A stretch of DNA of 64,000 nucleotides from an uncultured archaeon. GTDB taxonomy: Archaea; Nanobdellota; Nanobdellia; Pacearchaeales; GW2011-AR1. The notes below the pieces were generated by a model. It did not search any database, was not told where the DNA came from, and was given only the letters and a program-made list of their open reading frames with translations. Position numbers and translations under genes: made by a program. This document shows positions 1-35,941 of this stretch, one piece after another. The stretch spans positions 13,239-77,238 of the forward strand of contig CAIKWG010000042.1 in the NCBI GenBank assembly GCA_903831045.1. The letters run 5' to 3'. Positions within the stretch are counted from its first letter, which is position 1; every line of letters begins with the position of its first letter.

Positions 1-345
1 TGGGAAGATGGAGCCATTGACTTTGGTTTGGGCTTAATGCGAATTGCTTTTACGGCAGATGCCCAGGGAAATATGACTTTGGAGATAAAAGATTTAATGA
101 CCGGAGAAGTAAATGTAAATTCCATCAAAGGAACTTTTGATCCAAAGAGTAAACCAGGGTCAGATATTATGATTACTCAAACCCATCGCTGGGCCAATGA
201 GTGGATAGCTCTTACTCCGGGAGATCCAATTCCCGCTAGAAGTATGCGTTATGACATTCTTGCAGGTTCAGGTATGAAATTTTATTATGCTCAAACCAAT
301 CCTGTTTCAGAATGGTGGTTCCAGGTTAATTTGACAAAGCAGTAA
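1..345 (+). CDS. hypothetical protein, C-terminal fragment (frame open at window edge)
   Basis: Frame 1 has no stop from nt 1 to TAA at 343-345; no domain recognised. Confidence 0.55.
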   Translation, partial: WEDGAIDFGLGLMRIAFTADAQGNMTLEIKDLMTGEVNVNSIKGTFDPKSKPGSDIMITQTHRWANEWIALTPGDPIPARSMRYDILAGSGMKFYYAQTNPVSEWWFQVNLTKQ

Positions 346-349
346 GAAC

Positions 350-535
350 ATGTCAGAAACTAAAAAGATAGATGTGGAGAAAACAATTCAAAACATCTTG
401 GATAAAAGAAGTATTGGAATTTCAGTTGATGAAGCAAAATTAAGAGCTGAGATTCAAAATCTTAAGGATCCAACAGATTTTCTAACTCAGTGTGTGAAAC
501 TGGTGCGTACTGAGATTGCTTATGTCCAGAAGTAA
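350..535 (+). CDS. small hypothetical protein (61 aa)
   Basis: ATG 4 nt after previous stop; charged helical-looking; no homology recognised. Confidence 0.45.
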   Translation: MSETKKIDVEKTIQNILDKRSIGISVDEAKLRAEIQNLKDPTDFLTQCVKLVRTEIAYVQK

Positions 536-554
536 TCATTAATCTTTAACGGCA

Positions 555-625
555 GCTCTATTAGTTTAAGGATAAAACATCTGACTTCTTATCAGAAGAT
601 GCAAGTTCGAGTCTTGTACAGAGCA
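555..625 (+). tRNA. tRNA-Arg(UCU), AT-rich and atypical (U37, one A-C mismatch in acceptor stem)
   Basis: Manual cloverleaf: acceptor GCTCTAT/ACAGAGC, D stem GTTT/AAAC with GG loop, anticodon stem TCTGA/TCAGA with loop CTTCTTA, T arm GCAAG-TTCGAGT-CTTGT; no encoded CCA. Confidence 0.6.
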
Positions 626-671
626 CAAATTTTACAAAACCAATCTAATTAATAATTTCAATTTTATTATT

Positions 672-1235
672 ATGAACTCAACTTTTTGTATGTCTTTTGC
701 TTTCTATATGTGGGCAATTGGCAAAGCAATGGAAGAAGTTGCATTTAAGCAAGCTTTTTCTGAACCTGATGCTTATTTTGAACAGCATCATCCAATTATT
801 GACGAAGAAGAAAATGATTTGGAACAAAATCATTGGATTCAGGTAGCTCTCCTTGAGTCTTTTATGGAAGATGAACCTCTTGAAGAAGATTCCATCTCTG
901 TCGAAGAGATTGCACTAATTAAAAAATGGGACTGCAAACGTCCAGATAATACCAGCAGAAGATCAAGGTATAATCATTATGATAAATACCGCAGGCAAAA
1001 AGACTCTTGCAGTTATCTTTGTCAGGATGAACTTCGCTTCAAAAGAGCAAACAGACACAGAACTCCAATTAATGTTGACACCACCGATTTCTCTTATCGT
1101 GTTTATGCTTCCAATCCGAGAAGTTATTATAAAGAACAGCATGTGAAACTTTTTGTTAATCTTCAGGATAACAAAATAGAAGTAGCGAATATTCATGGCA
1201 CAAGCCATTATTTTCAGATGGAACTTGTTTTCTAG
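672..1235 (+). CDS. hypothetical acidic protein
   Basis: 187-aa ORF; Asp/Glu-rich middle, basic C-terminal half; no domain recognised. Confidence 0.55.
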   Translation: MNSTFCMSFAFYMWAIGKAMEEVAFKQAFSEPDAYFEQHHPIIDEEENDLEQNHWIQVALLESFMEDEPLEEDSISVEEIALIKKWDCKRPDNTSRRSRYNHYDKYRRQKDSCSYLCQDELRFKRANRHRTPINVDTTDFSYRVYASNPRSYYKEQHVKLFVNLQDNKIEVANIHGTSHYFQMELVF

Positions 1236-1264
1236 TCTCTCCTTTTTTACTTTCATATTTCTCT

Positions 1265-1310
1265 GCAGGTGCACTTTTCTCCCCGAAAGCATGTGCACCT
1301 GCTTTTTTCT
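1265..1310 (+). terminator. hairpin terminator, family A
   Basis: GCAGGTGCAC...GTGCACCTGC followed by TTTTTT; near-copy at 10132. Confidence 0.6.
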
Positions 1311-1343
1311 TTAATAAAATTTTCAAAAATAATTTAATAATCA

Positions 1344-1589
1344 ATGATTATGAATACAAAACAAATTAATTCAGCATTGCCAACCCTTGCTCTGCCCAGA
1401 GTTTTAGGTTGGGTTATACTTGGTCTTGTAATAATGGGATTATTGGCAATTATTTGTGGAATTAAAATTGCAACTGAAAAATCTATCTGGGGATTAGTTG
1501 CATTTGTTCCTGCATGTCTGTTCGTAAGCTCCATAGTTTATTGTACAATAAAAGATTATACTAAACAAAAATTTTCAAAAACAGCTTAA
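1344..1589 (+). CDS. small membrane protein (2 TM)
   Basis: 81-aa ORF with two hydrophobic helices. Confidence 0.55.
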   Translation: MIMNTKQINSALPTLALPRVLGWVILGLVIMGLLAIICGIKIATEKSIWGLVAFVPACLFVSSIVYCTIKDYTKQKFSKTA

Positions 1590-1601
1590 TAATTTTTAGT
1601 C

Positions 1602-2024
1602 ATGAAAACTTTTATTTCTAACCTTTACAAAAGAATAATTAATTCGATTGTAAGCATGTCAAATTTAGGAGTAATTGTTAGTGCATGGGCAATAGCAATT
1701 TTTCTCCTTTGGATTCCGCTTGAAGGAAAAGAAATGTTTCACAAACATCTTTTCTGGAATTTGTGGTTTGTAATTTATTTTGTGTTTACTTGCATTCGTC
1801 TGCATGTATCCATTAAACGTATAGACAGAATGAGTATGCGTGGATTTATCACAATTATGTATCTTCTCATCATTGTGTTTCTAACAATGCCTATATGGTT
1901 AGGTTCTTTGATGGAATTTTCTTTTGGAAAAATATTTTTCTTAATAGCTATTCCTTTTGATTTATTCGGAAGATTTATGCTGTACGAAATTTATACTAAG
2001 AGAGGCAAAGATTATCACTTTTAA
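1602..2024 (+). CDS. integral membrane protein
   Basis: 140 aa with about 4 hydrophobic segments; ATG in tttagtcATG context. Confidence 0.6.
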   Translation: MKTFISNLYKRIINSIVSMSNLGVIVSAWAIAIFLLWIPLEGKEMFHKHLFWNLWFVIYFVFTCIRLHVSIKRIDRMSMRGFITIMYLLIIVFLTMPIWLGSLMEFSFGKIFFLIAIPFDLFGRFMLYEIYTKRGKDYHF

Positions 2025-2061
2025 TGGATATTTTAAAAACAAATTTCTAATTTTCAAAATA

Positions 2062-2739
2062 ATGAAAACATCTATTTCTAATTCAGTTAACTCCTGGAAT
2101 GTAGACAGAGTTGTAAGAGTGTTTGCTAAATTTGGTGTTCTTTACTTCCTCGGATTAATAATTTTTTATCTTGTAAAGAATCCCACTGTTTTTCATTTCT
2201 ATCTTCCTAATGGATCTCTATCTCCTAACTACCATTGGATAGCCCAACTTGTGATAAATATGTTCGGCTATTTTTTCTTTGTAGCTTCTGTTGCGGTATT
2301 CCTTTGGAATATTGAGGATAATAAAAGATTAAATGCTGCGCAGAGAGAAGATTCAGGATTAAGAGCCCTCCTTGGATTCGTCTTTGGATTAATAATTACT
2401 GCTTTTATTTTCATTTTTTACCATAATCTGTTCATGCCCCCATCTTTCTCGATGTTGGTGTTGCCAGAGTTAATCACTTTTATTGTTATTGCATGCCTGG
2501 CAGATGCTATTCCAAATAGTCGTAGGACTTATTCTACTATGCTATATTCTTTGATTTTTGGTTATTGTTTCTTTATGGGTTTCTTTCTTGGGTTTCTTGA
2601 GGCAGTAGTTCTTTTAGTAACATTAATTTCCCTTGCATGGATTTTGGTCCTAATAATAAGAATTATCTTTTATTCCCCAACCATGTGGAAAAAAATCTGG
2701 AATAGAATAATAACTTTCTTTAAATGGTGGATTAAATAA
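2062..2739 (+). CDS. integral membrane protein
   Basis: Track ORF 1957-2739 trimmed to ATG at 2062 (MKTSISN) to avoid overlap; multiple TM segments. Confidence 0.6.
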   Translation: MKTSISNSVNSWNVDRVVRVFAKFGVLYFLGLIIFYLVKNPTVFHFYLPNGSLSPNYHWIAQLVINMFGYFFFVASVAVFLWNIEDNKRLNAAQREDSGLRALLGFVFGLIITAFIFIFYHNLFMPPSFSMLVLPELITFIVIACLADAIPNSRRTYSTMLYSLIFGYCFFMGFFLGFLEAVVLLVTLISLAWILVLIIRIIFYSPTMWKKIWNRIITFFKWWIK

Positions 2740-2757
2740 TAAATAAATTTAGTAGTC

Positions 2758-3222
2758 ATGAAAAATTTAGTTAATCAATTTGATGAACCCGAAGGAAAAG
2801 GTTCAATTCTGCATTTGAAAAATGGCAAAAAATTTCTTGCTTTCTATCTGACGGAATATCGTAGCTATCAAATTTTTAAGGATGTCGATAGCAATTACTG
2901 GGCCTATGATCCTACACCAGAAATAAAGAAAGTCTGCGAACCTTTATGCAAAACGTTTGAAGAAGTTCAGGAATTAATTAATGATGCGATTGTACTTGAA
3001 TTTGCAGGATCCTGCTTTGAATCGGAGTATGGTGATCCTGAAAAATATCGTGATGAAGATGAACAGCTCTTTAAAGATCAAGAAGAACAGGATCTTTTGA
3101 GAGATGAACATGAAGCTCTGAAGGATGAACTTGACCCGCGCTCTTACCAGAACATCTTTAACTTTGATGGTCTCGAGCCCTATGCAAATGAAGAAGAAGC
3201 TTATTGGGGCTCTAACTTGTAA
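2758..3222 (+). CDS. hypothetical acidic cytoplasmic protein
   Basis: 154 aa; very Asp/Glu-rich C-terminus; no TM. Confidence 0.6.
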   Translation: MKNLVNQFDEPEGKGSILHLKNGKKFLAFYLTEYRSYQIFKDVDSNYWAYDPTPEIKKVCEPLCKTFEEVQELINDAIVLEFAGSCFESEYGDPEKYRDEDEQLFKDQEEQDLLRDEHEALKDELDPRSYQNIFNFDGLEPYANEEEAYWGSNL

Positions 3223-3248
3223 AAAATAATTTAATAGATTTTAATCAA

Positions 3249-3797
3249 ATGAAAAAGTTTCTCAATTCTCATCTGCTCTGGCAGATTGTCTCAGGAATTA
3301 ATTTCCTTGGAAGTATCGCACTTCTGTTACCTTTTATGAGCTTGGCACTTACGCATCAAGACAACTGGTTTATTAGTTTCACAACGAATTCTGAACTTAC
3401 CTATCTTTACAATGGTCTCTTTGTAACGTATAATCCAGATACATTGTTTAAGTTTAGTGGAATCTGGTTTTCTCTTTCAACCATTGCTACAATTCTAATG
3501 CTTATCCTCCCTTCTTATTTATCTAAACCAAAATTTATAGAATTAACAAATGGTGCTGATAAAAAAGTTAAGGTAGACATATCAAGAAGGGCTTGTAAAA
3601 AATATGGTGCTTGCTATAATGAATATGTGCTCTTTCCAGATAGAAGCATGGCCGTGGTAATTGGAGTTGGTCCAGATATAAAAGGGCATAATCAACTTTG
3701 GTTAATCTTCTTGAATGATAGTGGCAAAGCTTCCTATTTACCTGATTGGAAAGATGTTAGCTTTATTACAGAGCAAGAAATAAAAATTTTAAGATAA
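3249..3797 (+). CDS. membrane-anchored hypothetical protein
   Basis: 182 aa; N-terminal TM segments then soluble C-terminal domain. Confidence 0.6.
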   Translation: MKKFLNSHLLWQIVSGINFLGSIALLLPFMSLALTHQDNWFISFTTNSELTYLYNGLFVTYNPDTLFKFSGIWFSLSTIATILMLILPSYLSKPKFIELTNGADKKVKVDISRRACKKYGACYNEYVLFPDRSMAVVIGVGPDIKGHNQLWLIFLNDSGKASYLPDWKDVSFITEQEIKILR

Positions 3798-3823
3798 CGG
3801 ATTAATTTCTGCTTGGCTCATTT

Positions 3824-3858
3824 TTCTGTTTGGAGTTTAACTAAACAGAATTTATTTT
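3824..3858 (+). terminator. hairpin terminator, family C
   Basis: TTCTGTTTGG-AGTTTAA-CTAAACAGAA then T-rich tract; near-identical copy at 30197. Confidence 0.55.
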
Positions 3859-3867
3859 CATTAATAA

Positions 3868-3903
3868 TTAATTAACAATTTTAATTTATAGGAGATTTAT
3901 ATT
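3868..3903 (+). promoter_or_regulatory. reiterated 5' cassette (ATTAACAAT...TTTATAGGAG...ATG)
   Basis: aattaacaattttaatttataggagatttatatt directly before ATG 3904. Confidence 0.5.
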
Positions 3904-5043
3904 ATGTCAATGGGTTATTCAAAATCAAAAGACCTTCAGGGTAAAATCCTCGAGGTTGGAGATAGAGTGCTTCTAGAAGAAATTATCTATGAAGCAAAAA
4001 CTATTCCAAGCACTTCTTTCTTTGAGCTTGCTCACGTTTTTGATGGAAGAAATTGTACTCTCACATCAAGAGAAACATTGGAACAATTAACTGAATATGC
4101 AATGGAAAAATTTCTGGCTAATGAAAAGAAGATTGCAGATTCATCTATCTCTGCTACGTCGGAAATTCCAGAATTTCCAAAGTTTGAAGTTCCAAAAACT
4201 TGGGCCACTTATACTCATTCTTCAGAGCTTAATGGTAAAATCCTTCAAATAGGAGATAGTGTTAAATTTCCAAAAAAGGATCTTTCCTATAGAGTAGTTG
4301 AAGATAAAAAGATGGGGCATGTGCTCTTGTACAAGGGTTCCATTCCAAAATTTTTCCTTGGGTCAAAAACCTTGGAAGAATTAACTTCAAGGGTGATTGA
4401 GAAATTTAAGGAAGAGGAACGACAGATTGCAGAAGAAGCCGAAGCAAAAAAAGAAGCCGAAGAAATTCTGCCTTTCTTTCCCGAGCCTGTAGAGAACTTT
4501 GTTTTCACCTCTTCAAATGAACTTAAAGGAAAAACTCTTGGTGTTAAGGATATTGTGTATTTTCCTACTAAAGAGACTTCCTATGAGGTTGCACTTAACA
4601 TCAATCCTAAGATTCCCTATGTTCTCAAATATCGGGACTCAGAATTTAAGATGGTTCTGCTGGGATATTCTCTTGAGGATTTAACTCAGAACACAATTCT
4701 TAAATTTGAGGAAGAGGAACATTTCATGGCAGAAAAAGCCGAAAAAGAGAAAGCAAAATCCGCCAAAGTTATTGTAGACTCTTCAGATTACTTTAAGTCC
4801 AAGATCTTACGGGTGGGGGATGTAATTAAATTTCCCGGAATTGCCCAGACTTTTGTTTTTCAGATAGATGCAGATTATAACTTCGTACTTCTGACAGAGC
4901 AAGGTTTGCCAACTAAACATTATTTTAATTCTTCCTATGCTGTGACTTCCGTTGTGGCAGAGGCATTCAAGGCTTTTGAAGAAGCCATAAAGATTGCTCA
5001 AGGGTTTAGTCTAAATTCTGCACCAACAATTAATCTTGGATAA
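3904..5043 (+). CDS. hypothetical protein with four ~97-aa internal repeats
   Basis: Repeats start SKDLQGKILEVGDRV / SSELNGKILQIGDSV / SSNELKGKTLGVKDIV / SSDYFKSKILRVGDVI; each is followed by a Glu/Lys-rich helix. Confidence 0.7.
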   Translation: MSMGYSKSKDLQGKILEVGDRVLLEEIIYEAKTIPSTSFFELAHVFDGRNCTLTSRETLEQLTEYAMEKFLANEKKIADSSISATSEIPEFPKFEVPKTWATYTHSSELNGKILQIGDSVKFPKKDLSYRVVEDKKMGHVLLYKGSIPKFFLGSKTLEELTSRVIEKFKEEERQIAEEAEAKKEAEEILPFFPEPVENFVFTSSNELKGKTLGVKDIVYFPTKETSYEVALNINPKIPYVLKYRDSEFKMVLLGYSLEDLTQNTILKFEEEEHFMAEKAEKEKAKSAKVIVDSSDYFKSKILRVGDVIKFPGIAQTFVFQIDADYNFVLLTEQGLPTKHYFNSSYAVTSVVAEAFKAFEEAIKIAQGFSLNSAPTINLG

Positions 5044-5112
5044 CCTTTTCATTTATCTTTCACATTAAGAGAGCAGAAAAAAGAAAGGAGGAAATCTTCT
5101 GCTCCTTAAATT

Positions 5113-5136
5113 AATTTACAAATTTACAAATTTACA
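5113..5136. repeat. tandem 8-mer (AATTTACA) x3
   Basis: Three exact adjacent copies in the intergenic region after a hairpin (5071-5104). Confidence 0.8.
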
Positions 5137-5140
5137 AATT

Positions 5141-5368
5141 TTGTTCAAAGTGAAAACGAAAAATATTTTGCTTTTATTGTTATGCTCTCTGCTTATGGCA
5201 AGTCTAGTTCTTGGAGTTAGTTTTCTAGTTACAAAAGAATCTTTCTCTATGCGTGCTCTTCTTGAGCTTTGGTCCTTGTGTTTTATATTCTTTATCTTTT
5301 TCAGATTTATCAAATTAACAATAATTAATAATTCCAAATTTTTATTTAATCATGAAAACTCTTATTAA
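5141..5368 (+). CDS. small membrane protein (non-ATG start, TTG 5141 or GTG 5150)
   Basis: Hydrophobic 70-75 aa ORF; overlaps next gene by 17 nt; start uncertain. Confidence 0.35.
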   Translation: MFKVKTKNILLLLLCSLLMASLVLGVSFLVTKESFSMRALLELWSLCFIFFIFFRFIKLTIINNSKFLFNHENSY

Positions 5369-5639
5369 GAAAATTATTCATTCAGGAGAAATCTATTCCT
5401 GGTTGCTTGCGGGTTTTACCTTTTCACTCATTGCCGTTATGTGGAAAGAAAATAAAATCCTGGTTTATGCTCTTCCTCAGGTTGCAGTAGTTATGGCTCA
5501 ACTTATTTATCTTCTTATTGAGAAACAGAAATTTTTCTCAATCAAACTTCTCTATTCGGAAATTGTCATTAATTTGGCTTACTTTAGTTCCTATGAATTC
5601 TTTCTTTTCTTTATGAAATCAGGTTTATCTAATAATTAA
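5352..5639 (+). CDS. small membrane protein
   Basis: 95 aa with about 3 TM segments. Confidence 0.55.
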   Translation: MKTLIKKIIHSGEIYSWLLAGFTFSLIAVMWKENKILVYALPQVAVVMAQLIYLLIEKQKFFSIKLLYSEIVINLAYFSSYEFFLFFMKSGLSNN

Positions 5640-5659
5640 TAATTTTAAATTTTATTATC

Positions 5660-6358
5660 ATGAAAAATTCCATTAACAAATCCATGCCAGCAATATTTTT
5701 AATATTACTTTTTGCTTCAGTATTGTGCTTTAATTTTGCTGACCTTTCTCTTAAAACATCTTTCTTTGGATTTCCTGGACTTCCAGAAATTATCCTGGTA
5801 ATCTTCTTTGCAATGTCCCCAACATTTTTGCTTCTCTGGGGAGCAAGCACAAATGGGTATAAAGAATATTCTCCTGGATTTTTATTTGCAATGGTTGTCT
5901 TCTTAGCTATTATTTTAGCAATAGTTGTTTTTGTAATGAGTATTCTTCCTCTTGGAATCTTATATGCGCTTTCGTGTGCTTTTTTCTTAATCCCAACTAT
6001 CCTCTATATTCTCAAGAGAAATAAAAGGTTGCTGGAGATAGAAACAGCAGAAAAAGCAATAGCAATAAGAAAAGCCAAGGCAAAAGTTGCAGAGCACAAA
6101 AGAGAACTTGAGAAAATCTTTCAGGAGTTCTTTGATAAGAATGCATTATACACAGAATCCCAAGAGGTTTACGAACTAACAGAATATGCAGATAAAATCA
6201 TGGATTTAACGGTTATAGAATTTCCAAAAAAAATCAAAGAAACTCTCAATGATTTTAATAAAATTCCTGTAACTCTAAGGCCCTGGTTGTTTGCAGTAGT
6301 TGCAAAACGTCTAACAGAATTAAAGAATTGTTCTGTTGAAGATTTATTTCAGGAATAA
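5660..6358 (+). CDS. membrane protein, paralog of 6851-7561
   Basis: N-terminal TM bundle, KRNKR + Lys/Glu helix, C-terminus LFAVVAKRLTELKNCSVEDL matches LFSIVAQKLADLRGCSLEEV. Confidence 0.65.
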   Translation: MKNSINKSMPAIFLILLFASVLCFNFADLSLKTSFFGFPGLPEIILVIFFAMSPTFLLLWGASTNGYKEYSPGFLFAMVVFLAIILAIVVFVMSILPLGILYALSCAFFLIPTILYILKRNKRLLEIETAEKAIAIRKAKAKVAEHKRELEKIFQEFFDKNALYTESQEVYELTEYADKIMDLTVIEFPKKIKETLNDFNKIPVTLRPWLFAVVAKRLTELKNCSVEDLFQE

Positions 6359-6401
6359 TTCTAAACTTCTCCTAAAAATTAATTAATAATTTTAAAACAA
6401 A

Positions 6402-6830
6402 ATGAATAAGCTTTTTGAAACCATCGAAGATTTTCTAAATCAATTAAAATTGGACTTTCTCCCAGATTCCCAGTTTCTAGGAGATTTAATTTCTGACTGC
6501 ATCGCATATATTGACTTCATTATTTCTTTAGAAGAAAGAAAATTGGAAATCTTGAATTTCAAAGAAGAAGATTTTACTGAAAAGAAGAAGCCAGTTTATC
6601 TCTTGAAGTACCCTGAAGCAGCAGTGATGTTGTCTGTAACTAAAAGAGAGAAATCTCTTTGCGAAAAGCATCTTGTAAGTCTAAGGACAACAAGAGATTC
6701 CTATAATCTTGTGTTAGCACAAGTTGGTTCCTATCCTTATCCTAACAGAAATATTGTTTTGGATTTTCAGGAAACAGCCAATCTCCTAAGAGAGGAAAAA
6801 ATTCAATTAGAAAAAGAACTCAATCAATAA
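6402..6830 (+). CDS. hypothetical cytoplasmic protein
   Basis: 142-aa ORF; no TM; no domain recognised. Confidence 0.55.
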   Translation: MNKLFETIEDFLNQLKLDFLPDSQFLGDLISDCIAYIDFIISLEERKLEILNFKEEDFTEKKKPVYLLKYPEAAVMLSVTKREKSLCEKHLVSLRTTRDSYNLVLAQVGSYPYPNRNIVLDFQETANLLREEKIQLEKELNQ

Positions 6831-6850
6831 TTCTAAATTTTTATTTCATC

Positions 6851-7561: not shown

Positions 7562-7601
7562 TCTTTAATCTAATTCTTTAATTAATAACTTCTATTCTGT
7601 C

Positions 7602-27926: not shown

Positions 27927-27976
27927 ATTAACTCAAAAATAAAAAATAAAAATAAATTTTATTAGGAGGTTTAATT

Positions 27977-29128: not shown

Positions 29129-29173
29129 TATTTATTAATCCTGTATAAACAAAAAGAAAACTAACTTTCAAAT

Positions 29174-29206
29174 TTTTATTAACAATTTAATCTAGGAGAT
29201 TGTAAA
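29174..29206 (+). promoter_or_regulatory. reiterated 5' cassette
   Basis: tttttattaacaatttaatctaggagattgtaaa before ATG 29207. Confidence 0.5.
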
Positions 29207-30172
29207 ATGGAAACAACAAAATCTATTCTTACACGTTCTGGTGACATGATCAGTGTTGATATCACCGATGAAAGCTGCATGAAATGGGGAGTTAAATCTG
29301 GAACAAGAATACTGACGCCAGATGGAAGAGCAACTGTTCAAGGAGTTGGTTTTCCCCCCAAACCAGAGATTCAAAGCATGCCTACTCCTTTTGGAATGGC
29401 TTTCATTCTGGGTTCTTTACTTGGAGGCAATACCAACTTGGGTTCTCAGATGTGGTTCATTGAGGATTCGGATAATGGAAGATCTGCTTTTAATAATAAA
29501 TGGATTGATGCAGAATCTTTTGTATCTGAAGGATTTGTAATCATTGGAACTCCTGAGGAAGAAGAAGCCTGGATAAAAAAACTTGAAGCTGAAGGTAAAA
29601 AAGAAATTAAGCTTTTATGCGGGCATTTTGCCATTGTTGATATCACCGATGAAAGCTGCATGAAATGGGGAGTGAAATCTGGAATGAGAATTTCTTCTCC
29701 TCAAGGGATTATTACCGTTCAGGGAGTCGGATGTCATCCGGGGAATACGGGCTCTGATATCTTTTGCTCTGTAGAAAATAAGGAGAACAAATGCGGAGTG
29801 TGGAATGAGGATTGGGTGAATGCCGAAACTTTTCCAATGAATCTGCGTATTTTAGGAACTCCTGAGGAAGAAGAAGCCTGGATAAAAAAACTTGAGGCCG
29901 AAGGGAAAAAAGAGATTCTTACTGCACTCGGTGGGAAAATAATTGTTGATATCACCGATGAAAGCTGTATGAAATGGGGAGTTAAATCTGGAACAAGAAT
30001 ATTAACTCCAGTGGGAGAAGCCACCGTGCAGGGAGTAGGATGTGTTCCGGACAGTCCTGAAGCAGGTATGCAGATGTGGTGTCTCTGGGACGATTATGAG
30101 GGGGCTGCAATTAATTCTGACTGGACTGATGTGGAATCTTTTGCATCAGAGGGATATTTGATTCTTAACTAA
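29207..30172 (+). CDS. three-repeat protein (DITDESCMKWGVKSG...ATVQGVG domain x3)
   Basis: Repeat cores start at 29255, 29636 and 29945 with near-identical DNA; linker GTPEEEEAWIKKLEAEGKKEI occurs twice. Confidence 0.75.
   Translation: METTKSILTRSGDMISVDITDESCMKWGVKSGTRILTPDGRATVQGVGFPPKPEIQSMPTPFGMAFILGSLLGGNTNLGSQMWFIEDSDNGRSAFNNKWIDAESFVSEGFVIIGTPEEEEAWIKKLEAEGKKEIKLLCGHFAIVDITDESCMKWGVKSGMRISSPQGIITVQGVGCHPGNTGSDIFCSVENKENKCGVWNEDWVNAETFPMNLRILGTPEEEEAWIKKLEAEGKKEILTALGGKIIVDITDESCMKWGVKSGTRILTPVGEATVQGVGCVPDSPEAGMQMWCLWDDYEGAAINSDWTDVESFASEGYLILN
29255..30001 (+). repeat. intragenic repeats (about 57-nt near-identical cores x3, about 63-nt linker x2)
   Basis: gttgatatcaccgatgaaagctgcatgaaatggggagttaaatctggaacaagaata recurs with 1 mismatch at 29945 and a few at 29636. 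Confidence 0.85.
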
Positions 30173-30196
30173 TCTTAATTGCGATTTAGCTCATTT

Positions 30197-30230
30197 TTCT
30201 GTTTGGAGTATAACTAAACAGAATTTTTTT
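30197..30230 (+). terminator. hairpin terminator, family C
   Basis: TTCTGTTTGG-AGTATAA-CTAAACAGAA followed by TTTTTTT. Confidence 0.65.
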
Positions 30231-30240
30231 CAAAACAAAA

Positions 30241-30278
30241 AACAATTTTATTAACAAATTTTATTGGAGGATTAAAAA
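30241..30278 (+). promoter_or_regulatory. reiterated 5' cassette
   Basis: aacaattttattaacaaattttattggaggattaaaaa before ATG 30279. Confidence 0.5.
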
Positions 30279-30728
30279 ATGAAAATTAATCTAAAATCCG
30301 TTATTGAAGATGCGGGTTTAAATGTAACGGCACTAAGAGAAGCAATCTTGCTTGTGCTTTTGACAGAAGCTAAAATTAAAAAAGTTGAACTTCTCAAACG
30401 CCTTTATGAAAAAAATGCTACCTGGACAAATCATCAAATTCTTTATGCTCTTGCAGAAATGCAGAACAAGGAAATTCTTATGAAATTGAGTCTTAATGAT
30501 GAGATTCTTTATTATCTCACTCCAAAATCTCTCGTGAAAATTTTTGCAAAAATGACCGAAAATTTTACCCAGGAAACTGGAGAAAAATTCGGAAATGCCG
30601 CAGAATTAACTGAAGAGCAATTTACACACATTCTTGATGCTGCTGGAGAAAGATGGGAAGAATTGCATACTCTTAGTACGCAAATAAGCAGACGTATTGG
30701 TGCTGCATTTAAAAAATACTTTGAATAA
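30279..30728 (+). CDS. possible winged-helix DNA-binding protein
   Basis: N-terminus GLNVTALREAILLVLLTE...ELLKRL...ILYALAEMQNKEIL resembles wHTH regulators; weak. Confidence 0.4.
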   Translation: MKINLKSVIEDAGLNVTALREAILLVLLTEAKIKKVELLKRLYEKNATWTNHQILYALAEMQNKEILMKLSLNDEILYYLTPKSLVKIFAKMTENFTQETGEKFGNAAELTEEQFTHILDAAGERWEELHTLSTQISRRIGAAFKKYFE

Positions 30729-30761
30729 TTATTTAATTCATTCATTTTTAAATTTAATATC

Positions 30762-31073
30762 ATGAAACGTACACTTATCAGATTAATATCTGTGGGCGAA
30801 GTTGGACAATTGGAAGTGGAAGGCATCGAAATGGAGATTCATCAATCTTCTATTTTCAGAACAGGAGTCAAAGTTTTCATTATTGGCAAGAGTAGAAATC
30901 CTGATGAAGAAATTGAAAAACTAAATCAGTCAGAAGATATACTCGTTCCAAAAGATTCAACTGCTTATGAAATTGCAAATAAAGTTGAATTGGATGGAGA
31001 TGCTATTTATGCTGTTATTTTTTATAAAGGGATAAAGTGGGAAATTAAACTTGATTCAACTTCCATGAGGTAA
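30762..31073 (+). CDS. small hypothetical protein
   Basis: 103-aa ORF; beta-rich. Confidence 0.55.
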   Translation: MKRTLIRLISVGEVGQLEVEGIEMEIHQSSIFRTGVKVFIIGKSRNPDEEIEKLNQSEDILVPKDSTAYEIANKVELDGDAIYAVIFYKGIKWEIKLDSTSMR

Positions 31074-31089
31074 TTATTCATTTTGTAAA

Positions 31090-31129
31090 AACAATTTTAT
31101 TAACAATTTAATTTAAGGAGGATTTTATT
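31090..31129 (+). promoter_or_regulatory. reiterated 5' cassette
   Basis: aacaattttattaacaatttaatttaaggaggattttatt before ATG 31130. Confidence 0.5.
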
Positions 31130-31363
31130 ATGAGAAAAAAGTATTTTTATATCCTTACCTGTGAAGTTAGACTTTTAGGTAGTTCGAAAAAATGGAAAAG
31201 AACAGAATCGGGAGAGTTCTTTCCTAGGGATTCTGAATTACCAGAAGATAATCAGTCTGCAATTTACGCCTTCCTGTTTAATCAGTTTAAGAAAAATGAA
31301 GAATGCTTGGGGAAAACCTTTAGTTTTGCAACTGTTTTTTATCGTCTTACTGAAACTACTTAA
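31130..31363 (+). CDS. small hypothetical protein, paralog of 13383-13634
   Basis: Shared MxKKYFYILTCE and FYxLTE motifs. Confidence 0.6.
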   Translation: MRKKYFYILTCEVRLLGSSKKWKRTESGEFFPRDSELPEDNQSAIYAFLFNQFKKNEECLGKTFSFATVFYRLTETT

Positions 31364-31436
31364 TAAAAAAGTTTAATCTTCTATTCATCATTTTCTAATT
31401 TCATTTATTTACAATTTAATTTAAGGAGATTTAATT

Positions 31437-31616
31437 ATGAAAAGATTATCGCGTTCATTTTCAGATGCTAAAATCGCCGGTGTCTGTGGAGGTTTAGGAG
31501 AATATTTTAACCTTGATCCGGCATGGTTTAGATTCGGTTTTCTCGTATCGCTTATCTGCTATGGTGTAGGATTAGTTCCTTACATCATTCTCTGGATTGT
31601 TTTACCTGAAAAATAA
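31437..31616 (+). CDS. PspC-domain small membrane protein (59 aa, absent from ORF track)
   Basis: Hand translation MKRLSRSFSDAKIAGVCGGLGEYFNLDPAWFRFGFLVSLICYGVGLVPYIILWIVLPEK; AAGGAG cassette upstream. Confidence 0.7.
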   Translation: MKRLSRSFSDAKIAGVCGGLGEYFNLDPAWFRFGFLVSLICYGVGLVPYIILWIVLPEK

Positions 31617-31639
31617 TTTTCTAAAGTTTAATCACTAAC

Positions 31640-31670
31640 TTTTATTAACAAATTTAATTGGAGGATTTAT
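31640..31670 (+). promoter_or_regulatory. reiterated 5' cassette
   Basis: ttttattaacaaatttaattggaggatttat before ATG 31671. Confidence 0.5.
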
Positions 31671-32225
31671 ATGATGTTACCAACTTTGCAAGAAGAAGAA
31701 ATTATACCCTTACTTAATTTCTGCCTAAAAAACGGATATTTTGCATTTAAAGATAAATTCTTAAATGCAGAAATTAAGTCCGTCCATATAAGAGGAGCAT
31801 ATCTAAGATTAGTTCTTTCTATTCCTTCAGAAAAAGAAGGTGAGCCAAATCAAGAAAAAATGATTTTACTTTTGCGTGATAGAAAAGGTTTTGAAAATAG
31901 AACTCTTCTTTTCGATTCCTATTCCTTCCCAGAGGATTTACCAAACTTTCTAATTACTGAAGATAAAGAATTGGGAACGATGATTTACTCTTTAGGTTTA
32001 AGCTGTGTTCTTTCTCTCAAGAATGAATTTAGTGTGGTCTCTTACAAGGAGGATAATGGATTTCTAGTTTTAACTCACAAATCCAAAAAGATGGAAGTTG
32101 TTCAACTTTCTCCCTATTGTTCAACAGGAAAATTTAGCGGAGGATATAATATTTCTTCTGATAGAAAAACCGTTGAATATTGGAATGCTCCAGAAACAAA
32201 AGTAATGAAGGTAAAAGAAGCTTAA
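31671..32225 (+). CDS. hypothetical protein
   Basis: 184-aa ORF; no TM. Confidence 0.6.
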   Translation: MMLPTLQEEEIIPLLNFCLKNGYFAFKDKFLNAEIKSVHIRGAYLRLVLSIPSEKEGEPNQEKMILLLRDRKGFENRTLLFDSYSFPEDLPNFLITEDKELGTMIYSLGLSCVLSLKNEFSVVSYKEDNGFLVLTHKSKKMEVVQLSPYCSTGKFSGGYNISSDRKTVEYWNAPETKVMKVKEA

Positions 32226-32308
32226 ATTTCACTAACTAAATTTTATTAACAATTTTTTTCATCATTTTTTAATTTTATTTATTCACTAATTTTTTAAGGA
32301 GTTTTATT

Positions 32309-32809
32309 ATGAAAAAGTTTATTGTTTTATTGCTAATTTCTTTCTTTGCAACTACAATGTTTGCTCAGGAAAGAAAAAATGAAGCCTCACAAAAGGCTCA
32401 GGTTTCACAAATGCAGCAAGCAGGAGTTCACCATCATGGTTTGCCCACCTTGCCAGTTATAGGTTCTAAGGATCCTAAATTCATGCCTCCGCGTCCGGGA
32501 AAAAGAATCTTTGATTTCCGTCCTTCAGCTGAGAGGAATATAGAACATTTCAGAAATTGGGTGCAGCTGAATCTGAGGTATCCTCCTCTTGCAGTTGAAG
32601 GAAATATTTCCGGCGTAATCTATGTTACTTTTGAAGTGAAAGATGGAAAGATAATTCCTCTTACATCAAAGAACATCCTCAAGGGAGTAAATCCATTGCT
32701 TGACAAAGAAGTTATCCGCGTCATTAATTCTGCTCCCGCATGGGCTCCTCCGCAGCGTATGCCTGGAATACAGACATTCTCTATGCCTGTTGAATTTATT
32801 CTTAAGTAA
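32309..32809 (+). CDS. secreted protein with TonB C-terminal-like domain
   Basis: Signal peptide ...TTMFAQ; LRYPPLAVEGNISGVIYVTFEVKDGKI...LDKEVIRVINSAPAW...PVEFILK. Confidence 0.6.
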   Translation: MKKFIVLLLISFFATTMFAQERKNEASQKAQVSQMQQAGVHHHGLPTLPVIGSKDPKFMPPRPGKRIFDFRPSAERNIEHFRNWVQLNLRYPPLAVEGNISGVIYVTFEVKDGKIIPLTSKNILKGVNPLLDKEVIRVINSAPAWAPPQRMPGIQTFSMPVEFILK

Positions 32810-32845
32810 GCTAAGAGGGTTTCATCCGACATTTGATTAAACGAA

Positions 32846-32887
32846 GTGTGCAGGATAATTTTAAAGAAAAGTTCTGCACACTTTTTT
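32846..32887 (+). terminator. hairpin terminator, family B
   Basis: GTGTGCAGGATAATTTTAAAGAAAAGTTCTGCACAC followed by TTTTTT. Confidence 0.65.
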
Positions 32888-32911
32888 ATTCATCTAAAAA
32901 TAAATTTCATT

Positions 32912-33265
32912 ATGGAAATTAACAGAAATTTTTTCTTAAACTTTGTTGCCGATTCTTTATTGAAGGACTTTCAAAATACGGATAAACCATTTTATGAGTT
33001 TCTTAATCTACTCAATCATGATGGAAAATCAGTAAGGGGTCTTTTTAGAAGGTTAAGCGGTCTCAAAATAAATTTGAAGCAATCAGAAAGCAAAAAGAGT
33101 TTTGAGATCCTTGAATCCTATGATGGAGTCTGGGGTCTTGTTCTCTATGAGCAACCAGGATTTAACCTTCCATTTGAAATAGGAATCTTAAATTTTCAGG
33201 AGAACCTTTTTTATAAATTAATTCTACCTGAAGATAAATGGATTGATCTCACTACGAAATCTTAA
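32912..33265 (+). CDS. hypothetical protein
   Basis: Track ORF 32846 starts inside the terminator; trimmed to ATG 32912 (MEINRNFF). Confidence 0.55.
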   Translation: MEINRNFFLNFVADSLLKDFQNTDKPFYEFLNLLNHDGKSVRGLFRRLSGLKINLKQSESKKSFEILESYDGVWGLVLYEQPGFNLPFEIGILNFQENLFYKLILPEDKWIDLTTKS

Positions 33266-33290
33266 TTCGTACTTTTATTAATTCTCTTCT

Positions 33291-33323
33291 TTTTATTCAC
33301 AAATTTAATTGGAGGTTTAAATT
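33291..33323 (+). promoter_or_regulatory. reiterated 5' cassette
   Basis: ttttattcacaaatttaattggaggtttaaatt before ATG 33324. Confidence 0.5.
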
Positions 33324-33557
33324 ATGAAAATTTCTCTTTCAACTGATGCCAAAATCATCTTAGCTCAATTGGGAAAAGTTCTTTCTGCAATAGTAAGTTT
33401 TTGTGCTTTTGTTTACGGCTGGTTTGCAGATTTAACATTCTCTCAGGATGCGCCAAAAATACTTCTTCTGATAGCCTTAATTTTTATTCCTATCTTTATT
33501 TATCTCAGATTGCAAAATCTGCGAGATAAACTTGAAGGAAAGCCCTGGGCAAGATAG
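33324..33557 (+). CDS. small membrane protein (2 TM)
   Basis: 77-aa ORF. Confidence 0.55.
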   Translation: MKISLSTDAKIILAQLGKVLSAIVSFCAFVYGWFADLTFSQDAPKILLLIALIFIPIFIYLRLQNLRDKLEGKPWAR

Positions 33558-33583
33558 AATATTCTTTTAAGAAGATTTCAACT

Positions 33584-33619
33584 TTTATTTTTATTAATTA
33601 TTTAATTGGAGGATTTATC
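33584..33619 (+). promoter_or_regulatory. reiterated 5' cassette
   Basis: ttttatttttattaattatttaattggaggatttatc before ATG 33620. Confidence 0.5.
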
Positions 33620-33871
33620 ATGTCAGCAGATGGTCATACGCCGTGGTTCACAGATGATTCTGAAGCATGTGAAGGCTTTGGAGTTTCTCCGGGAGAGGAT
33701 ATAATTCTTCCTAATGGAGAAAGAGCAACTGTTGTTGGAAAAGATTGGATTCAAGAAGCAGGTGCAAGTAACAGGATTCTTTTTCGAGATGAAGATGGTA
33801 ATGAGAAGTATTGGGGTTCCTGGGAAAGTGCAGAAGATTTTGAAAGACTTGGATTCAGAAAAGTTGATTAA
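33620..33871 (+). CDS. single-copy homolog of the 29207-30172 repeat domain
   Basis: TDDSEACEGFGVSPGEDIILPNGERATVVGKD...WESAEDFERLGF parallels DITDESCMKWGVKSGTRILTPDGRATVQGVG...ESFVSEGF. Confidence 0.6.
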   Translation: MSADGHTPWFTDDSEACEGFGVSPGEDIILPNGERATVVGKDWIQEAGASNRILFRDEDGNEKYWGSWESAEDFERLGFRKVD

Positions 33872-33906
33872 ATTATTTTAGATTTAGCTTAATTGCGAAC
33901 TCACAG

Positions 33907-33948
33907 GTGTGCAGGATGATTCGAAAGAAAAGTTCTGCACACTTTTTT
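33907..33948 (+). terminator. hairpin terminator, family B
   Basis: GTGTGCAGGATGATTCGAAAGAAAAGTTCTGCACAC followed by TTTTTT. Confidence 0.65.
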
Positions 33949-33983
33949 ACTCAACAATAAATTTTTTATTGGAGGATTTTATT

Positions 33984-34436
33984 ATGATTGATAAAAAAAT
34001 ATCCCTAGCAGAATTTCTTGAAATGACAAAAGGAATGTATGTTTGGGAACATCCAGATCCAGGCAGGAGAATGATTTCTAAAGAAAACCTGTCAGACGCT
34101 TTTACTTTAATAGGAGATGCTTCTGAATCTTCTTTTGATGATGCTGGAACAACTTGCATTCTTGCTCTTGTTGCTTTGGACAAAAAGGATTATCTCCAAG
34201 AGATAGAGAAATTTATCTTTAAGGAAGAGATGGATGCATCTCTATCTAGATTTTCTGAAGGAGAAACAATTCTCGGTTGCATTGCCGGCTATTATTGCCT
34301 CAGATTTTCCGTTGAAGGCATTGTTTCATTAGGGTCTGGAAGCAATAATTATCTTTGTATGAGAGTTGGAGAAAATTGTTTCCTTCTGGCTTGGATTACA
34401 GGGACAAGGGTTTCATGGATTGAAATTGCGGATTAA
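33984..34436 (+). CDS. hypothetical protein
   Basis: Track ORF 33909 starts inside the terminator; trimmed to ATG 33984 behind GGAGG. Confidence 0.6.
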   Translation: MIDKKISLAEFLEMTKGMYVWEHPDPGRRMISKENLSDAFTLIGDASESSFDDAGTTCILALVALDKKDYLQEIEKFIFKEEMDASLSRFSEGETILGCIAGYYCLRFSVEGIVSLGSGSNNYLCMRVGENCFLLAWITGTRVSWIEIAD

Positions 34437-34448
34437 TTTGTTTCTAAA

Positions 34449-34501
34449 CAATTTTTATTAACTAATTATTTTCTTTTAATCATTTAATTGGAGGATTTAT
34501 T
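34449..34501 (+). promoter_or_regulatory. reiterated 5' cassette
   Basis: caatttttattaac...catttaattggaggatttatt before ATG 34502. Confidence 0.45.
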
Positions 34502-35050
34502 ATGTTTTTTTTATGTCTTACATTATTATGCCTTGGTCTGGGATTCTTATTCTTTTTCTTATCTGACAAAAACAATAAAGAGTCCCTTGGAGGAACTGGA
34601 ATTGCTTTCATAGTTATTGGTTGTTTCATTTTTGTGATTGAAGTGATTTCGGAATTTTCTAATTATTCTGGTCAAATAAGAAGGTTCGAGAATCTCCGTG
34701 CCGAGAATAAGAAGATAGTGCTTCTTGAGGAGAAATGCACTTCCTTGACAAAATCATTTTCTTATTACCTTGGAGAAAAATATCCTGAATTTGAAAAGCA
34801 AATTTTTGAAAAAATTTCTCCTGCATCTGCTGAAGGCAATATTATTGCTTTACTCTCTCACTATCCTGAATTGCGTTCGTCTGAGTCTATTGGTAAATTG
34901 GTAGATCAGATAAACTCTCTAACCAGCGACCTTTATGCACGAAAGATTTCTCGCGAGGACATTTGTCAAAAAATTAGATTCAAGGAAAAATCTCCCTGGA
35001 TTTTATTTTTGCCAAAAGTTTCTGAAGACCTTAAGGCTATCATTTTCTAA
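34502..35050 (+). CDS. membrane-anchored coiled-coil protein
   Basis: 2 N-terminal TM then helical domain. Confidence 0.6.
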   Translation: MFFLCLTLLCLGLGFLFFFLSDKNNKESLGGTGIAFIVIGCFIFVIEVISEFSNYSGQIRRFENLRAENKKIVLLEEKCTSLTKSFSYYLGEKYPEFEKQIFEKISPASAEGNIIALLSHYPELRSSESIGKLVDQINSLTSDLYARKISREDICQKIRFKEKSPWILFLPKVSEDLKAIIF

Positions 35051-35069
35051 TTCTTAATTTTTATTTTTT

Positions 35070-35384
35070 ATGAAAGATTTAATGCCTGAAGCTATCAAAT
35101 TGGTAGACAAAAAATTTAATCAAAAAGTAAGGAGACTGATGGCAGCACAAACCGCAGTTCTTGTGCTTTTCCTATTACTCTTTTTCCAAAAGGTAATAAC
35201 TGTTGTTAGCTGTTCGATTGCTTTGGCAGTTCCAATTTTGGTTACATTACTTGTGTGGTTAATTTACAAGAGGGAGTATAAAGAGGAGATAAGAATTCTT
35301 ACCTTGAAATCTTTTCTTGCTAACCTTGTTGGTTATGGATTGGGAATTGCTTCTGGAGCAATTTTAGAAGCTATTGTTCATTAA
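35070..35384 (+). CDS. small membrane protein
   Basis: 104 aa with 3 TM. Confidence 0.55.
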   Translation: MKDLMPEAIKLVDKKFNQKVRRLMAAQTAVLVLFLLLFFQKVITVVSCSIALAVPILVTLLVWLIYKREYKEEIRILTLKSFLANLVGYGLGIASGAILEAIVH

Positions 35385-35427
35385 TTATTCTTAATTAATT
35401 TCTTTAACATTTAATTTTTAATTTATT

Positions 35428-35748
35428 ATGAAAAAAGCATATAAATTTACTTGGACGTGGAAACAGTTTTTGACTGTTTATTTTCTAATTGTTCTTATAG
35501 GAGTGCTGGCTGGTTGTGCTAATGTCACTCCTATTGAATCTGTTGGAGTAGTGCATCATTACGGTTTCTTTAGTGGAGTGTGGCACGGTATTGTTGCTCC
35601 ATTCAGCATTTGGGGTTCTCTCTTTTGGCCCAAATCAATTGCTTTCTATGGGTTGATCAATACTGGCTGGTGGTATAACTTCGGATTTCTTTTTGGCATG
35701 AGTGTAGTGTTGGGCGGGGGAGGACGTGCTACTTCTGGTAGTAAATAA
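35428..35748 (+). CDS. lipoprotein-like membrane protein
   Basis: Lipobox VLAGC; Gly/Trp-rich TM segments. Confidence 0.55.
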   Translation: MKKAYKFTWTWKQFLTVYFLIVLIGVLAGCANVTPIESVGVVHHYGFFSGVWHGIVAPFSIWGSLFWPKSIAFYGLINTGWWYNFGFLFGMSVVLGGGGRATSGSK

Positions 35749-35775
35749 TTCATTGACTGGTTAAGTAATAAAAAA

Positions 35776-35816
35776 ATATCTCCATCTTCGCAAGAAGCTC
35801 TGGAGATATTTTTTTT
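35776..35816. terminator. bidirectional hairpin terminator at the block/core junction
   Basis: A-run, ATATCTCCA...TGGAGATAT, then T-run between convergent 35428-35748 (+) and rpoD (-). Confidence 0.6.
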
Positions 35817-35941
35817 GTATTAATATATGAAAATATATTCATATGTAATTATAAAGAGAAATCTCAACTATATTTTTTTGCAAAATTTTCTTACCCGAAC
35901 AATAGCCGAAGGGCAAAATTAATCTGTTAGCCGATTAAGTC

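Follow-up and report, generated by a model that had tools for sequence, protein, structure and literature searches.

The window analysed here, a 64,000-nucleotide (nt) stretch of contig CAIKWG010000042.1 from an uncultured archaeon, holds 154 open reading frames (ORFs) of at least 60 amino acids (aa), with a block of accessory genes on its left and archaeal core genes to the right of it. Within the block, every non-nested ORF of this size between positions 28 and 35748 lies on the + strand; minus-strand ORFs there reach at most 117 aa and are nested in + strand ORFs. The original prediction, made from the sequence alone, had counted 57 ORFs in a single orientation; the orientation was borne out, and the count we accept is 55. 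Most of these are short, as it had also noted (37 of the 55 encode fewer than 200 aa, with a median of 150 aa versus 263 aa in the right part of the window). About half had been credited with a signal peptide, lipobox or membrane segment, and we found at least one hydrophobic segment in 32 of the 55 and lipobox-like patterns in four or five. Pfam and PHROGs scans of the 55 ORFs agreed that genes for replication, translation, capsid, terminase and integrase are absent from the block, and found no portal or packaging ATPase gene; relaxase, coupling protein and VirB4-type mating-pore genes were likewise not found in the window. The left end of the block lies outside the window, and 35.8 kilobases (kb) is a lower bound for its size.

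The right flank is archaeal, as had been recognised for 35.9-44 kb. Between 35.9 and 44.7 kb lie the genes for RpoD, S11, S4, S13, RpoF, L21e, RpoN, SecF and SecD, together with a lone 5S rRNA gene and three tRNA genes, one of them a 95-nt tRNA-Gly. The 5S rRNA gene (41616-41730) stands by itself between the tRNA genes and secF, and 16S and 23S rRNA genes are absent from the window. Named homologues of RpoD belong to Pacearchaeota or Nanoarchaeota, and metagenomic relatives reach 85-96% identity; judging from these genes, the host is a Pacearchaeon (DPANN). From 44.7 to 64 kb the window carries polysaccharide-synthesis and glycosyltransferase genes.

The junction between block and flank, at 35.75-35.94 kb, is crossed by three contigs from other samples or species (contigs and loci compared with the window carry L numbers). 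L001, a 605-bp contig from another lake sample, matches 35419-36022 at 99.8% identity; it reaches from the last block gene into the end of rpoD and so spans the junction. L174, from a different assembly and a related species whose RpoD is 85% identical to that of the window, aligns at 83% nucleotide identity from 37572 to 35374. In this contig a 74%-identical homologue of 35428-35748 adjoins rpoD and is followed by Band_7, NfeD-like and TonB_C genes. L006, a 99.8-kb contig of another related species (RpoD 89% identical), matches the core of the window at 81-84% up to about 35765, where similarity ends with the junction hairpin (35771-35815) still on the host side. On the other side of that point, the genes of L006 are convergent and co-oriented, and homologues of 33620 (70%), 32309 (52%) and 8566/9059 (32-37%) are among them.

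In order to place the block among related genomes, we scanned metagenomes with a HerA-like (DUF87) ATPase that is present in L002 and L006. The scan returned more than 180 relatives, on contigs of up to 965 kb, and yielded a conserved locus but no further blocks like that of the window. In at least 24 loci a XerA-like recombinase comes first, S9, L13 and L18e follow on one strand, and the opposite strand then carries a 152-aa protein and the ATPase; rpoD-S11-S4-S13 follows downstream, convergent with the ATPase, in seven loci, six of which are within the 24. The left edge of the locus in relatives is formed by tRNA-Leu(CAA). Archaea have a conserved gene cluster, S13-S4-S11-RpoD-L18e-L13-S9, and this clade thus has an array of opposite orientation inserted between its rpoD and rpl18e genes. 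Both flanks, rpl18e and rpoD, are kept in L008, L012, L015, L016, L028 and L038, in all of which the array runs opposite to them (e.g. L028:7590-19511); the rpoD flank is kept in the window, L006, L007 and L174.

Within the array, conservation is limited to the 152-aa protein and the ATPase; the co-oriented genes that follow, mostly for small membrane or secreted proteins, are patchy or unique, most being confined to a single contig. Measured from where the ATPase gene ends to rpoD, the array spans 2.9-8.6 kb in six loci; it exceeds 10-19 kb in L009, L002 and L132 and reaches at least 35.8 kb in the window. What adjoins rpoD varies: a gene of the 35428 family in the window and L174, one of the 33620 family in L006, and an AhpC-like gene in L007. 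Relatives that share the locus and its HerA-like leader have RpoD proteins only about 50% identical. The relatives compared retain the locus and share scattered genes with differing neighbours; the block is not present or absent as one unit. For the window, a HerA-like ATPase, if present, would fall left of its edge.

The array opens with tRNA-Leu(CAA), the 152-aa protein and, in many cases, one of about 95 aa, ahead of the HerA-like ATPase of 660-690 aa, which has an apparent C-terminal DNA-binding (winged-helix) region; the ATPase belongs to the FtsK/HerA superfamily and shows weak similarity to Zot and TrwB. PADLOC recognised no defence system, giving only generic matches to HerA and AAA+ proteins. 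A Band_7/flotillin gene often occurs in the arrays of relatives near rpoD (L006:11200-12789; L174:3926-5500; L009), in L174 with an NfeD-like partner. The window lacks a Band_7 gene and has TelA, both being membrane-stress or membrane-organisation families.

Table 1. Features of the window. Positions count from the first nucleotide of the window; a dot marks a feature assigned to neither strand; RBS, ribosome-binding site; ABC, ATP-binding cassette; GC, guanine plus cytosine.
Feature	Position	Strand	Remarks
Accessory block, 55 co-oriented ORFs	1..35748	+	coding fraction 0.91; extends past left window edge
tRNA-Arg(TCT)	555..626	+	37.5% GC versus 52-59% in three host tRNAs
Hairpin family D3, reference copy, TTCTGTTTGG...AAACAGAA then T-run	3802..3857	+	other copies 17767, 24199, 30175
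Gene of four internal repeats, ~98 aa each	3904..5043	+	
Tandem array of three paralogous small lipoprotein-like genes (13636/14087/14514)	13636..14978	+	
Operon gene 1, AAA+ ATPase, Mpa/ARC-like N-terminal part	15674..17569	+	PF00004 at 4.7e-28
Operon gene 2, small acidic protein, ~60 aa	17580..17762	+	always 3' of AAA+ gene
Operon gene 3, 573-aa secreted protein, signature protein of the operon	17867..19588	+	weak C-terminal OmpA-like region
Operon gene 4, vWA protein	19619..20389	+	lipobox-like signal
Operon gene 5, 518-aa protein with C-terminal OmpA domain	20443..21999	+	PF00691 at 5e-14
Operon gene 6, 308-aa protein, two membrane segments, predicted helical tail	22008..22934	+	
Operon gene 7, TelA family	22921..24183	+	PF05816 at 5.9e-35
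Operon genes 8-10, NMT1-like binding protein, ABC permease, ABC ATPase	24298..27543	+	
Hairpin family D2, reference copy, GTGTGCAG...CTGCACA then T-run	27874..27944	+	other copies 12182, 32834, 33895
Membrane protein, phrog_2087	27977..29128	+	full length, E = 4.8e-40
Gene of three internal repeats, ~103 aa each	29207..30172	+	related domain in 3249-3797
Promoter/RBS cassette TTTTATTAACAAATTTAATTGGAGGATT, reference copy	31627..31670	+	other copies 5' of at least 15 block genes, e.g. 30233, 33278, 34457
Secreted protein, TonB C-terminal-like domain	32309..32809	+	TonB_C 23.7 bits, just below cut-off
Last block gene, lipobox protein, phrog_30702	35428..35748	+	E = 9e-19
Perfect bidirectional hairpin, terminator-like (A-run, ATATCTCCA...TGGAGATAT, T-run)	35771..35815	.	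between convergent last block gene and rpoD
Host operon L21e-RpoF-DUF655-S13-S4-S11-RpoD	35942..39287	-	convergent with block

The block contains a ten-gene bacterial envelope operon (15674-27543; Table 1). The set is 65-86% identical in L002, which also has the HerA-like gene, and a second contig shows the same gene order with an AAA+ protein 59% identical. The AAA+ ATPase of the window is 67% identical to that of L002 and 38-40% identical to Bacteroidales copies. Bacteria carry these ten genes in ordinary chromosomal surroundings: in tblastn comparisons with L003-L005, L088 and L089, all ten showed sequence similarity, and the sole difference in order is that the AAA+ gene and its small partner open the operon in the window and L002 and close it in bacteria. 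Six of the proteins are 45-57% identical to their Bacteroidales counterparts and the other four 25-40%. When GTDB was scanned with the 573-aa protein, 165 relatives came up; the closest matches listed are mostly Bacteroidales (50-54% identity), and other carriers are Acidobacteriota, Poribacteria, Melainabacteria, cyanobacteria and bacteria of the candidate phyla radiation (CPR). Three archaeal-labelled metagenome-assembled genomes (MAGs) carry the operon: a Pacearchaeota MAG on a 232-kb contig, a Nanoarchaeota MAG on a 253-kb contig, and one labelled Euryarchaeota. On the 253-kb contig, a tRNA-Leu, a 154-aa gene and a HerA-like gene lie directly upstream, and in L132, one of these two DPANN-labelled contigs, the operon adjoins the lineage-specific HerA-like gene.

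All archaeal copies nest with Bacteroidota in a rough neighbour-joining (NJ) tree calculated without support values. Between the window and L002, the ratio of nonsynonymous to synonymous substitution rates (dN/dS) was 0.05-0.21 for seven genes, values that are approximate with dS near saturation; the operon is therefore kept by purifying selection. Exact look-up of the AAA+ protein found no other contig, a GTDB scan with its alignment found no relatives, and an IMG/VR scan with its patterns found none either. In the NJ tree, the 573-aa copies of a 'Flavobacterium psychrophilum' MAG and an Obscuribacterales MAG (L155 and L162) are almost identical, which suggests a binning error in one of these public MAGs, and the label of L158, 'Euryarchaeota archaeon SM23-78', may be questionable. 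Within the operon, two different secreted-protein genes share a 57-nt segment, 96% identical, that comprises the upstream region and the first codons (MKKQI...; 17833-17889 and 24264-24320). Its sequence suggests a recent gene conversion, or a duplication of a unit of promoter and signal peptide.

Most of the domains that had been recognised by eye were found again. The AAA+ ATPase had been read as Mpa/ARC-like; its match to the proteasomal OB domain is weak and below cut-off (19.3 vs 23.4 bits), the solved Mpa structure aligns with residues 203-605, and the ATPase domain scores best with Cdc48/VAT D2. Neither a proteasome gene nor PafA or Dop was found in the operon. Bacterial copies of the small partner protein (L003:11881-12057; L004:11881-12045) contain the motif DIDEVIREID or DIDDVIQEID, which resembles the Mpa-binding helix of Pup. 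The small protein does not have a C-terminal GGQ/E, the operon has no Pup ligase or proteasome, and the archaeal copies have diverged (12-17% identity). OmpA-like regions were found in two proteins, and the sequence NLSQERANAV in the 518-aa protein presumably represents the peptidoglycan-binding motif of OmpA. The vWA and TelA assignments also stood. The TonB_C domain of 32309-32809 remained below cut-off, but homologues occur at the same locus in L006 (52% identical, scoring 54 bits) and L174 (57%). The PspC domain did not stand, as no block ORF scanned had a PspC match in Pfam at E <= 0.01. Beyond the domains named here and in Table 1, Pfam matched no ORF of the block.

The block and its flank differ in their expression signals. 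The reiterated promoter/RBS cassette that the original prediction had described was confirmed in five repeat families (D4, D5, D8, D9 and D13) as TTTTATTAACAA(A)TTTAATTGGAGG, also written TTTTATTAACAA(A)TTTAATTGGAGGATTTATTATG. Of the genes preceded by a gap of 40 nt or more, 16 of 27 in the block and 1 of 11 in the host part have a Shine-Dalgarno site, and none of the 27 block genes but 6 of the 11 host genes have a TTTAAA box about 29 nt 5' of the ATG. By these motifs, host genes with their own promoter appear to be leaderless, with a TTTAAA box and no Shine-Dalgarno site. The same split separates block genes from core genes in L006. The transcription units of the block consist of an A/T-rich motif, a strong Shine-Dalgarno site and an ORF, often followed by a hairpin and T-run. 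GC-rich hairpins with a T-run occur in about ten block intergenic regions, as two four-copy families and singles; three reiterated families had been described, of which D2 and D3 have four copies each and the third only two (1295 and 10163). When host intergenic regions were folded, no hairpin with a T-run was found apart from the one at the junction. The longest intergenic gap of the block (31364-31670, 307 nt) contains the full promoter/RBS cassette followed by ATGAAAAGATTATCG..., and therefore a short ORF of fewer than 60 aa may exist there.

Codon usage divides the window in the same way. The GC content of third codon positions (GC3) is 0.28-0.29 in the block versus 0.20-0.23 in the host genes. 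Relative synonymous codon usage (RSCU) correlates at 0.969 between two non-operon parts of the block and at 0.962 between two host parts, but at 0.875-0.917 between block and host and at 0.75-0.79 between operon and host; Leu and Arg codons differ most between block and host (p = 4e-26 and 2e-11). The overall composition of the block is close to that of the host and its tetranucleotide usage is mildly different, with no break at 35.8 kb; the correlation of non-operon block parts with the host core (0.967-0.98) is no lower than that between host parts, which fits a long residence of the block. A second composition anomaly lies at 56001-58000, in the glycosyltransferase and polysaccharide cluster, where GC content is 0.265 (0.283 over 56-60 kb); this is the strongest tetranucleotide outlier of the window, and its direction is opposite to that of the bacterial operon.

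Other genes of the block are tandem paralogues or internally repeated, as originally noted (13636/14087/14514; 3904-5043; 29207-30172), and further paralogue pairs are 5660/6851 and 13383/31130. A domain related to the repeats of 29207-30172 is possibly present in 33620-33871, judging by sequence. A pattern noted by eye, G-x(2)-[ILV]-x(1-2)-GD-x-[IV] (e.g. GKILEVGDRVLL, GDRIFIY, GEKIVIS), recurs in small block proteins and repeat units (13067-15430, 3904-5043, 29207-30172 and 33620-33871) and may mark one diversified family of small beta-rich domains. ORF 10642-11397, the putative beta-barrel protein ending in Phe of the original prediction, has no Pfam match, was modelled by AlphaFold with a predicted local distance difference test (pLDDT) score of 30, and has three weak homologues among 1.84 billion representative proteins.

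These data indicate that the block is genuine Pacearchaeon chromosome, and that it is probably an exceptionally expanded copy of the hypervariable array inside the S13-S4-S11-RpoD-L18e-L13-S9 cluster. The best reading of this array is as a long-standing hypervariable island that collects foreign membrane and envelope genes; a position with core flanks, variable content, atypical codon usage and acquired cargo, the marks of a genomic island, are all found here. The island would have grown by repeated acquisition and not by one recent insertion, and also by local duplication, which may have left the paralogues, the internal repeats and the 57-nt segment at 17833 and 24264. Its repeated cassettes probably double as recombination sites that shuffle genes. 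The products of the island would be placed in or displayed on the archaeal envelope, where the operon could form a complex centred on its ABC transporter, with OmpA-type peptidoglycan-binding and vWA proteins on the outer side and TelA, the unfoldase-type AAA+ ATPase and its small partner on the inner side. No DPANN archaeon is known to make peptidoglycan, and an outer membrane is not to be expected in an archaeon either. Therefore, contact with a bacterial cell wall would be the most economical role of the OmpA-like domains. The Bacteroidota affinity of the operon and the phage-family genes, together with peptidoglycan-binding domains kept under selection, makes a bacterial partner a plausible hypothesis, in line with an earlier suggestion for Pacearchaeota (PMC8204110).

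Among the three options that the original prediction had offered, an inter-domain island is thus the best supported, by a 12-kb bacterial operon that is closest to Bacteroidota, is carried by several DPANN genomes and is kept by purifying selection; the island may, as proposed, act on a bacterial partner's envelope. The observation behind that prediction is confirmed, and its interpretation as a whole is partly supported.

Several points weigh against the island reading. Since the left end lies outside the window, the block could be part of a larger integrated element. Its codon usage, Shine-Dalgarno cassettes, terminators, low-GC tRNA and single-strand layout would equally be expected of a virus or plasmid. 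Those ORFs outside the operon that were searched are essentially without homologues, so that a role at the surface or in host contact rests, for these, on hydrophobic segments and signal-like N-termini only. Successive acquisition is deduced from comparing a few contigs, without a dated phylogeny; and the NJ tree lacks support values and the dN/dS values suffer from near-saturated dS, as stated above.

It is unlikely, in our view, that the block is an integrated provirus or the decaying remnant of a large virus or plasmid, with the window holding an accessory ('early' or moron-like) region. Small ORFs on one strand, with their own promoter/RBS cassettes and terminators, would suit such an element, yet 35.8 kb contain no capsid, portal, terminase, integrase or replication gene, and a provirus is possible only if hallmark genes lie left of the window. 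The low GC content of tRNA-Arg(TCT), a feature of the original prediction that we confirm, is typical of viral tRNAs. However, its 3' part has no second copy within the window, so that we rejected it as an att site there; the tRNA was not found among the 169 loci compared, and its nearest phage matches are chance-level matches to other tRNAs. Two of the 45 non-operon ORFs belong to phage protein families. The protein of 27977-29128 has counterparts, 30-35% identical, in Lak megaphages, Tenacibaculum jumbo phages and an uncultured phage of 595 kb, but an IMG/VR scan with it found two viral contigs that share this gene only. The protein of 35428-35748 is 50% identical to Cellulophaga phage proteins, but is kept at the same position in the sister species, at the 74% identity given above. 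A search of the concatenated small ORFs against Pfam, PHROGs and phage genomes found only phrog_30702 and a marginal phrog_902 (E = 9e-4).

A provirus could also explain why codon usage differs from that of the flanking host genes throughout the block, why gene content varies among close relatives, and why a tRNA-Leu forms the left edge of the locus in them. The locus and its HerA-like leader nevertheless occupy a fixed chromosomal position in relatives with RpoD proteins as distant as those described, and this conservation argues against a provirus. The recombinase of the relatives lies outside the array, beyond S9, and by its size and domains we infer that it is a XerA-type housekeeping enzyme. 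A virus or integrated element, as the original prediction had it, is not supported in that form, the window showing neither hallmark genes nor an att repeat of the tRNA; the foreign flavour of the tRNA, the phage families, the codons and the signals is nevertheless real. For a mobile or viral origin in general, the syntenic, co-oriented variable arrays of relatives, lying between ribosomal-protein and RNA-polymerase genes, are adverse evidence, of the kind that the original prediction had named as a refutation.

A bolder form of the island reading, which we hold to be quite unlikely, would make the HerA-led rpl18e-rpoD array a symbiosis locus of Pacearchaeota, in which the conserved ATPase would head a rapidly changing surface and exported arsenal drawn from Bacteroidota and their phages (peptidoglycan-binding OmpA domains, TonB-C, lipoproteins and phage membrane proteins), with the archaeon attached to a Bacteroidota cell. 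In its more extreme version, with which the bacterial-style Shine-Dalgarno and terminator signals would be compatible, some cassettes would be transferred to the bacterial partner and expressed there. It is very improbable that the block is a conjugative element or a cassette array of the integron type, with the upstream HerA/FtsK-type ATPase as its driving enzyme. Co-oriented small cassettes, each with a 3' hairpin, would fit an integron, but hairpins follow only about 10 of 54 genes and are terminator-like, and attC-like box pairs occur at chance level (5 observed versus 4.2 +/- 2.0 in shuffles). An ATPase of the FtsK/HerA superfamily, with its weak Zot and TrwB similarity, does head the array in relatives, but it is a fixed chromosomal gene on more than 180 contigs. 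Its loci in relatives contain no partner conjugation genes, and integron integrase, relaxase and conjugation genes are absent from the window and from the relatives' loci alike. Finally, we give hardly any credence to a metagenomic chimera in which an archaeal chromosome is joined, at about 35.8 kb, to DNA of a bacterium or phage, one of the options first raised: the bacterial-type domains, Shine-Dalgarno sites, intrinsic terminators, differing codon usage and Bacteroidales as nearest named relatives of the operon would fit it, but it is refuted because three independent contigs (L001, L174 and L006) span the junction, and the smooth tetranucleotide usage and the presence of the operon on 232- and 253-kb DPANN-labelled contigs also speak against it.

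A hypervariable island in a Pacearchaeon chromosome thus remains the explanation we prefer. No cultivated Pacearchaeon, and no host of one, is known. An island that is conserved in position and hypervariable in content offers a specific place in which to seek genes of partner interaction, and its largest operon and two phage-family genes, by their affinity to Bacteroidota, point to a candidate partner phylum. If the array were indeed a symbiosis locus, it would be genomic evidence for episymbiosis of an archaeon on a bacterium, with the host phylum named. The bacterial-style signals and the block's own tRNA-Arg, beside leaderless host genes, bear on how transferred genes are kept functional across domains. 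For practical purposes, the split S13-S4-S11-RpoD-L18e-L13-S9 cluster is a synteny marker useful for binning, and binning and chimera filters might discard such regions.

Bacterial genes and dark-matter islands in DPANN archaea are already known (PMC8204110, PMC6393860). Our literature searches found no description of the rpoD-rpl18e insertion site, the HerA-led variable array, the size of this copy, the ten-gene operon with its Bacteroidota affinity, or the contrast in expression signals, and no paper describing the ten-gene operon as such. A system of FtsZ-like, vWA and OmpA proteins (Makarova and Koonin 2010, PMC2875224) is thematically similar but differs in gene set, and we rejected it as a counterpart. 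The bacterial ten-gene operon itself is seen in Bacteroidales, Acidobacteriota, Poribacteria, Melainabacteria and others, whereas the host of the window copy is an archaeon. Accessory regions of jumbo phages and megaphages (Lak phages, LR756511, Tenacibaculum PTm1) resemble the block in their long runs of small same-strand ORFs, own promoters and terminators, and tRNA genes. They share with it only two protein families (phrog_2087 and phrog_30702), and the block differs from them in lacking structural, packaging and replication genes and in its chromosomal position, which is conserved in relatives.

The transfer of bacterial genes into Pacearchaeota and Woesearchaeota has been described before (Castelle et al. 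2021, PMC8204110). Murein-binding and murein-degrading surface proteins were proposed there as a pointer to bacterial hosts, phage genes were noted near some transferred genes, and the possibility of DPANN archaea with bacterial hosts was raised as a question; neither OmpA nor TonB nor an outer membrane is mentioned. The window shares with those cases inter-domain transfer into these archaea. It differs in that a whole ten-gene envelope operon with OmpA, TelA, vWA and AAA+ proteins and a Bacteroidota affinity has been acquired, at a defined insertion locus.

The flexible genomic islands of prokaryotes, including 'dark matter' islands in DPANN and other archaea (Makarova et al. 2019, PMC6393860), are comparable in several respects: a fixed position by a tRNA gene, content varying among close relatives, short uncharacterised genes rich in membrane or secreted proteins, atypical codons and acquired cargo. 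Unlike these islands, the block of the window lies inside the rpoD-rpl18e cluster and reads against it, and it belongs to an array that is led, in relatives, by a conserved HerA-like ATPase. At 36 kb or more it is very large for a small genome, and its grammar of Shine-Dalgarno sites and hairpin terminators stands against that of leaderless host genes.

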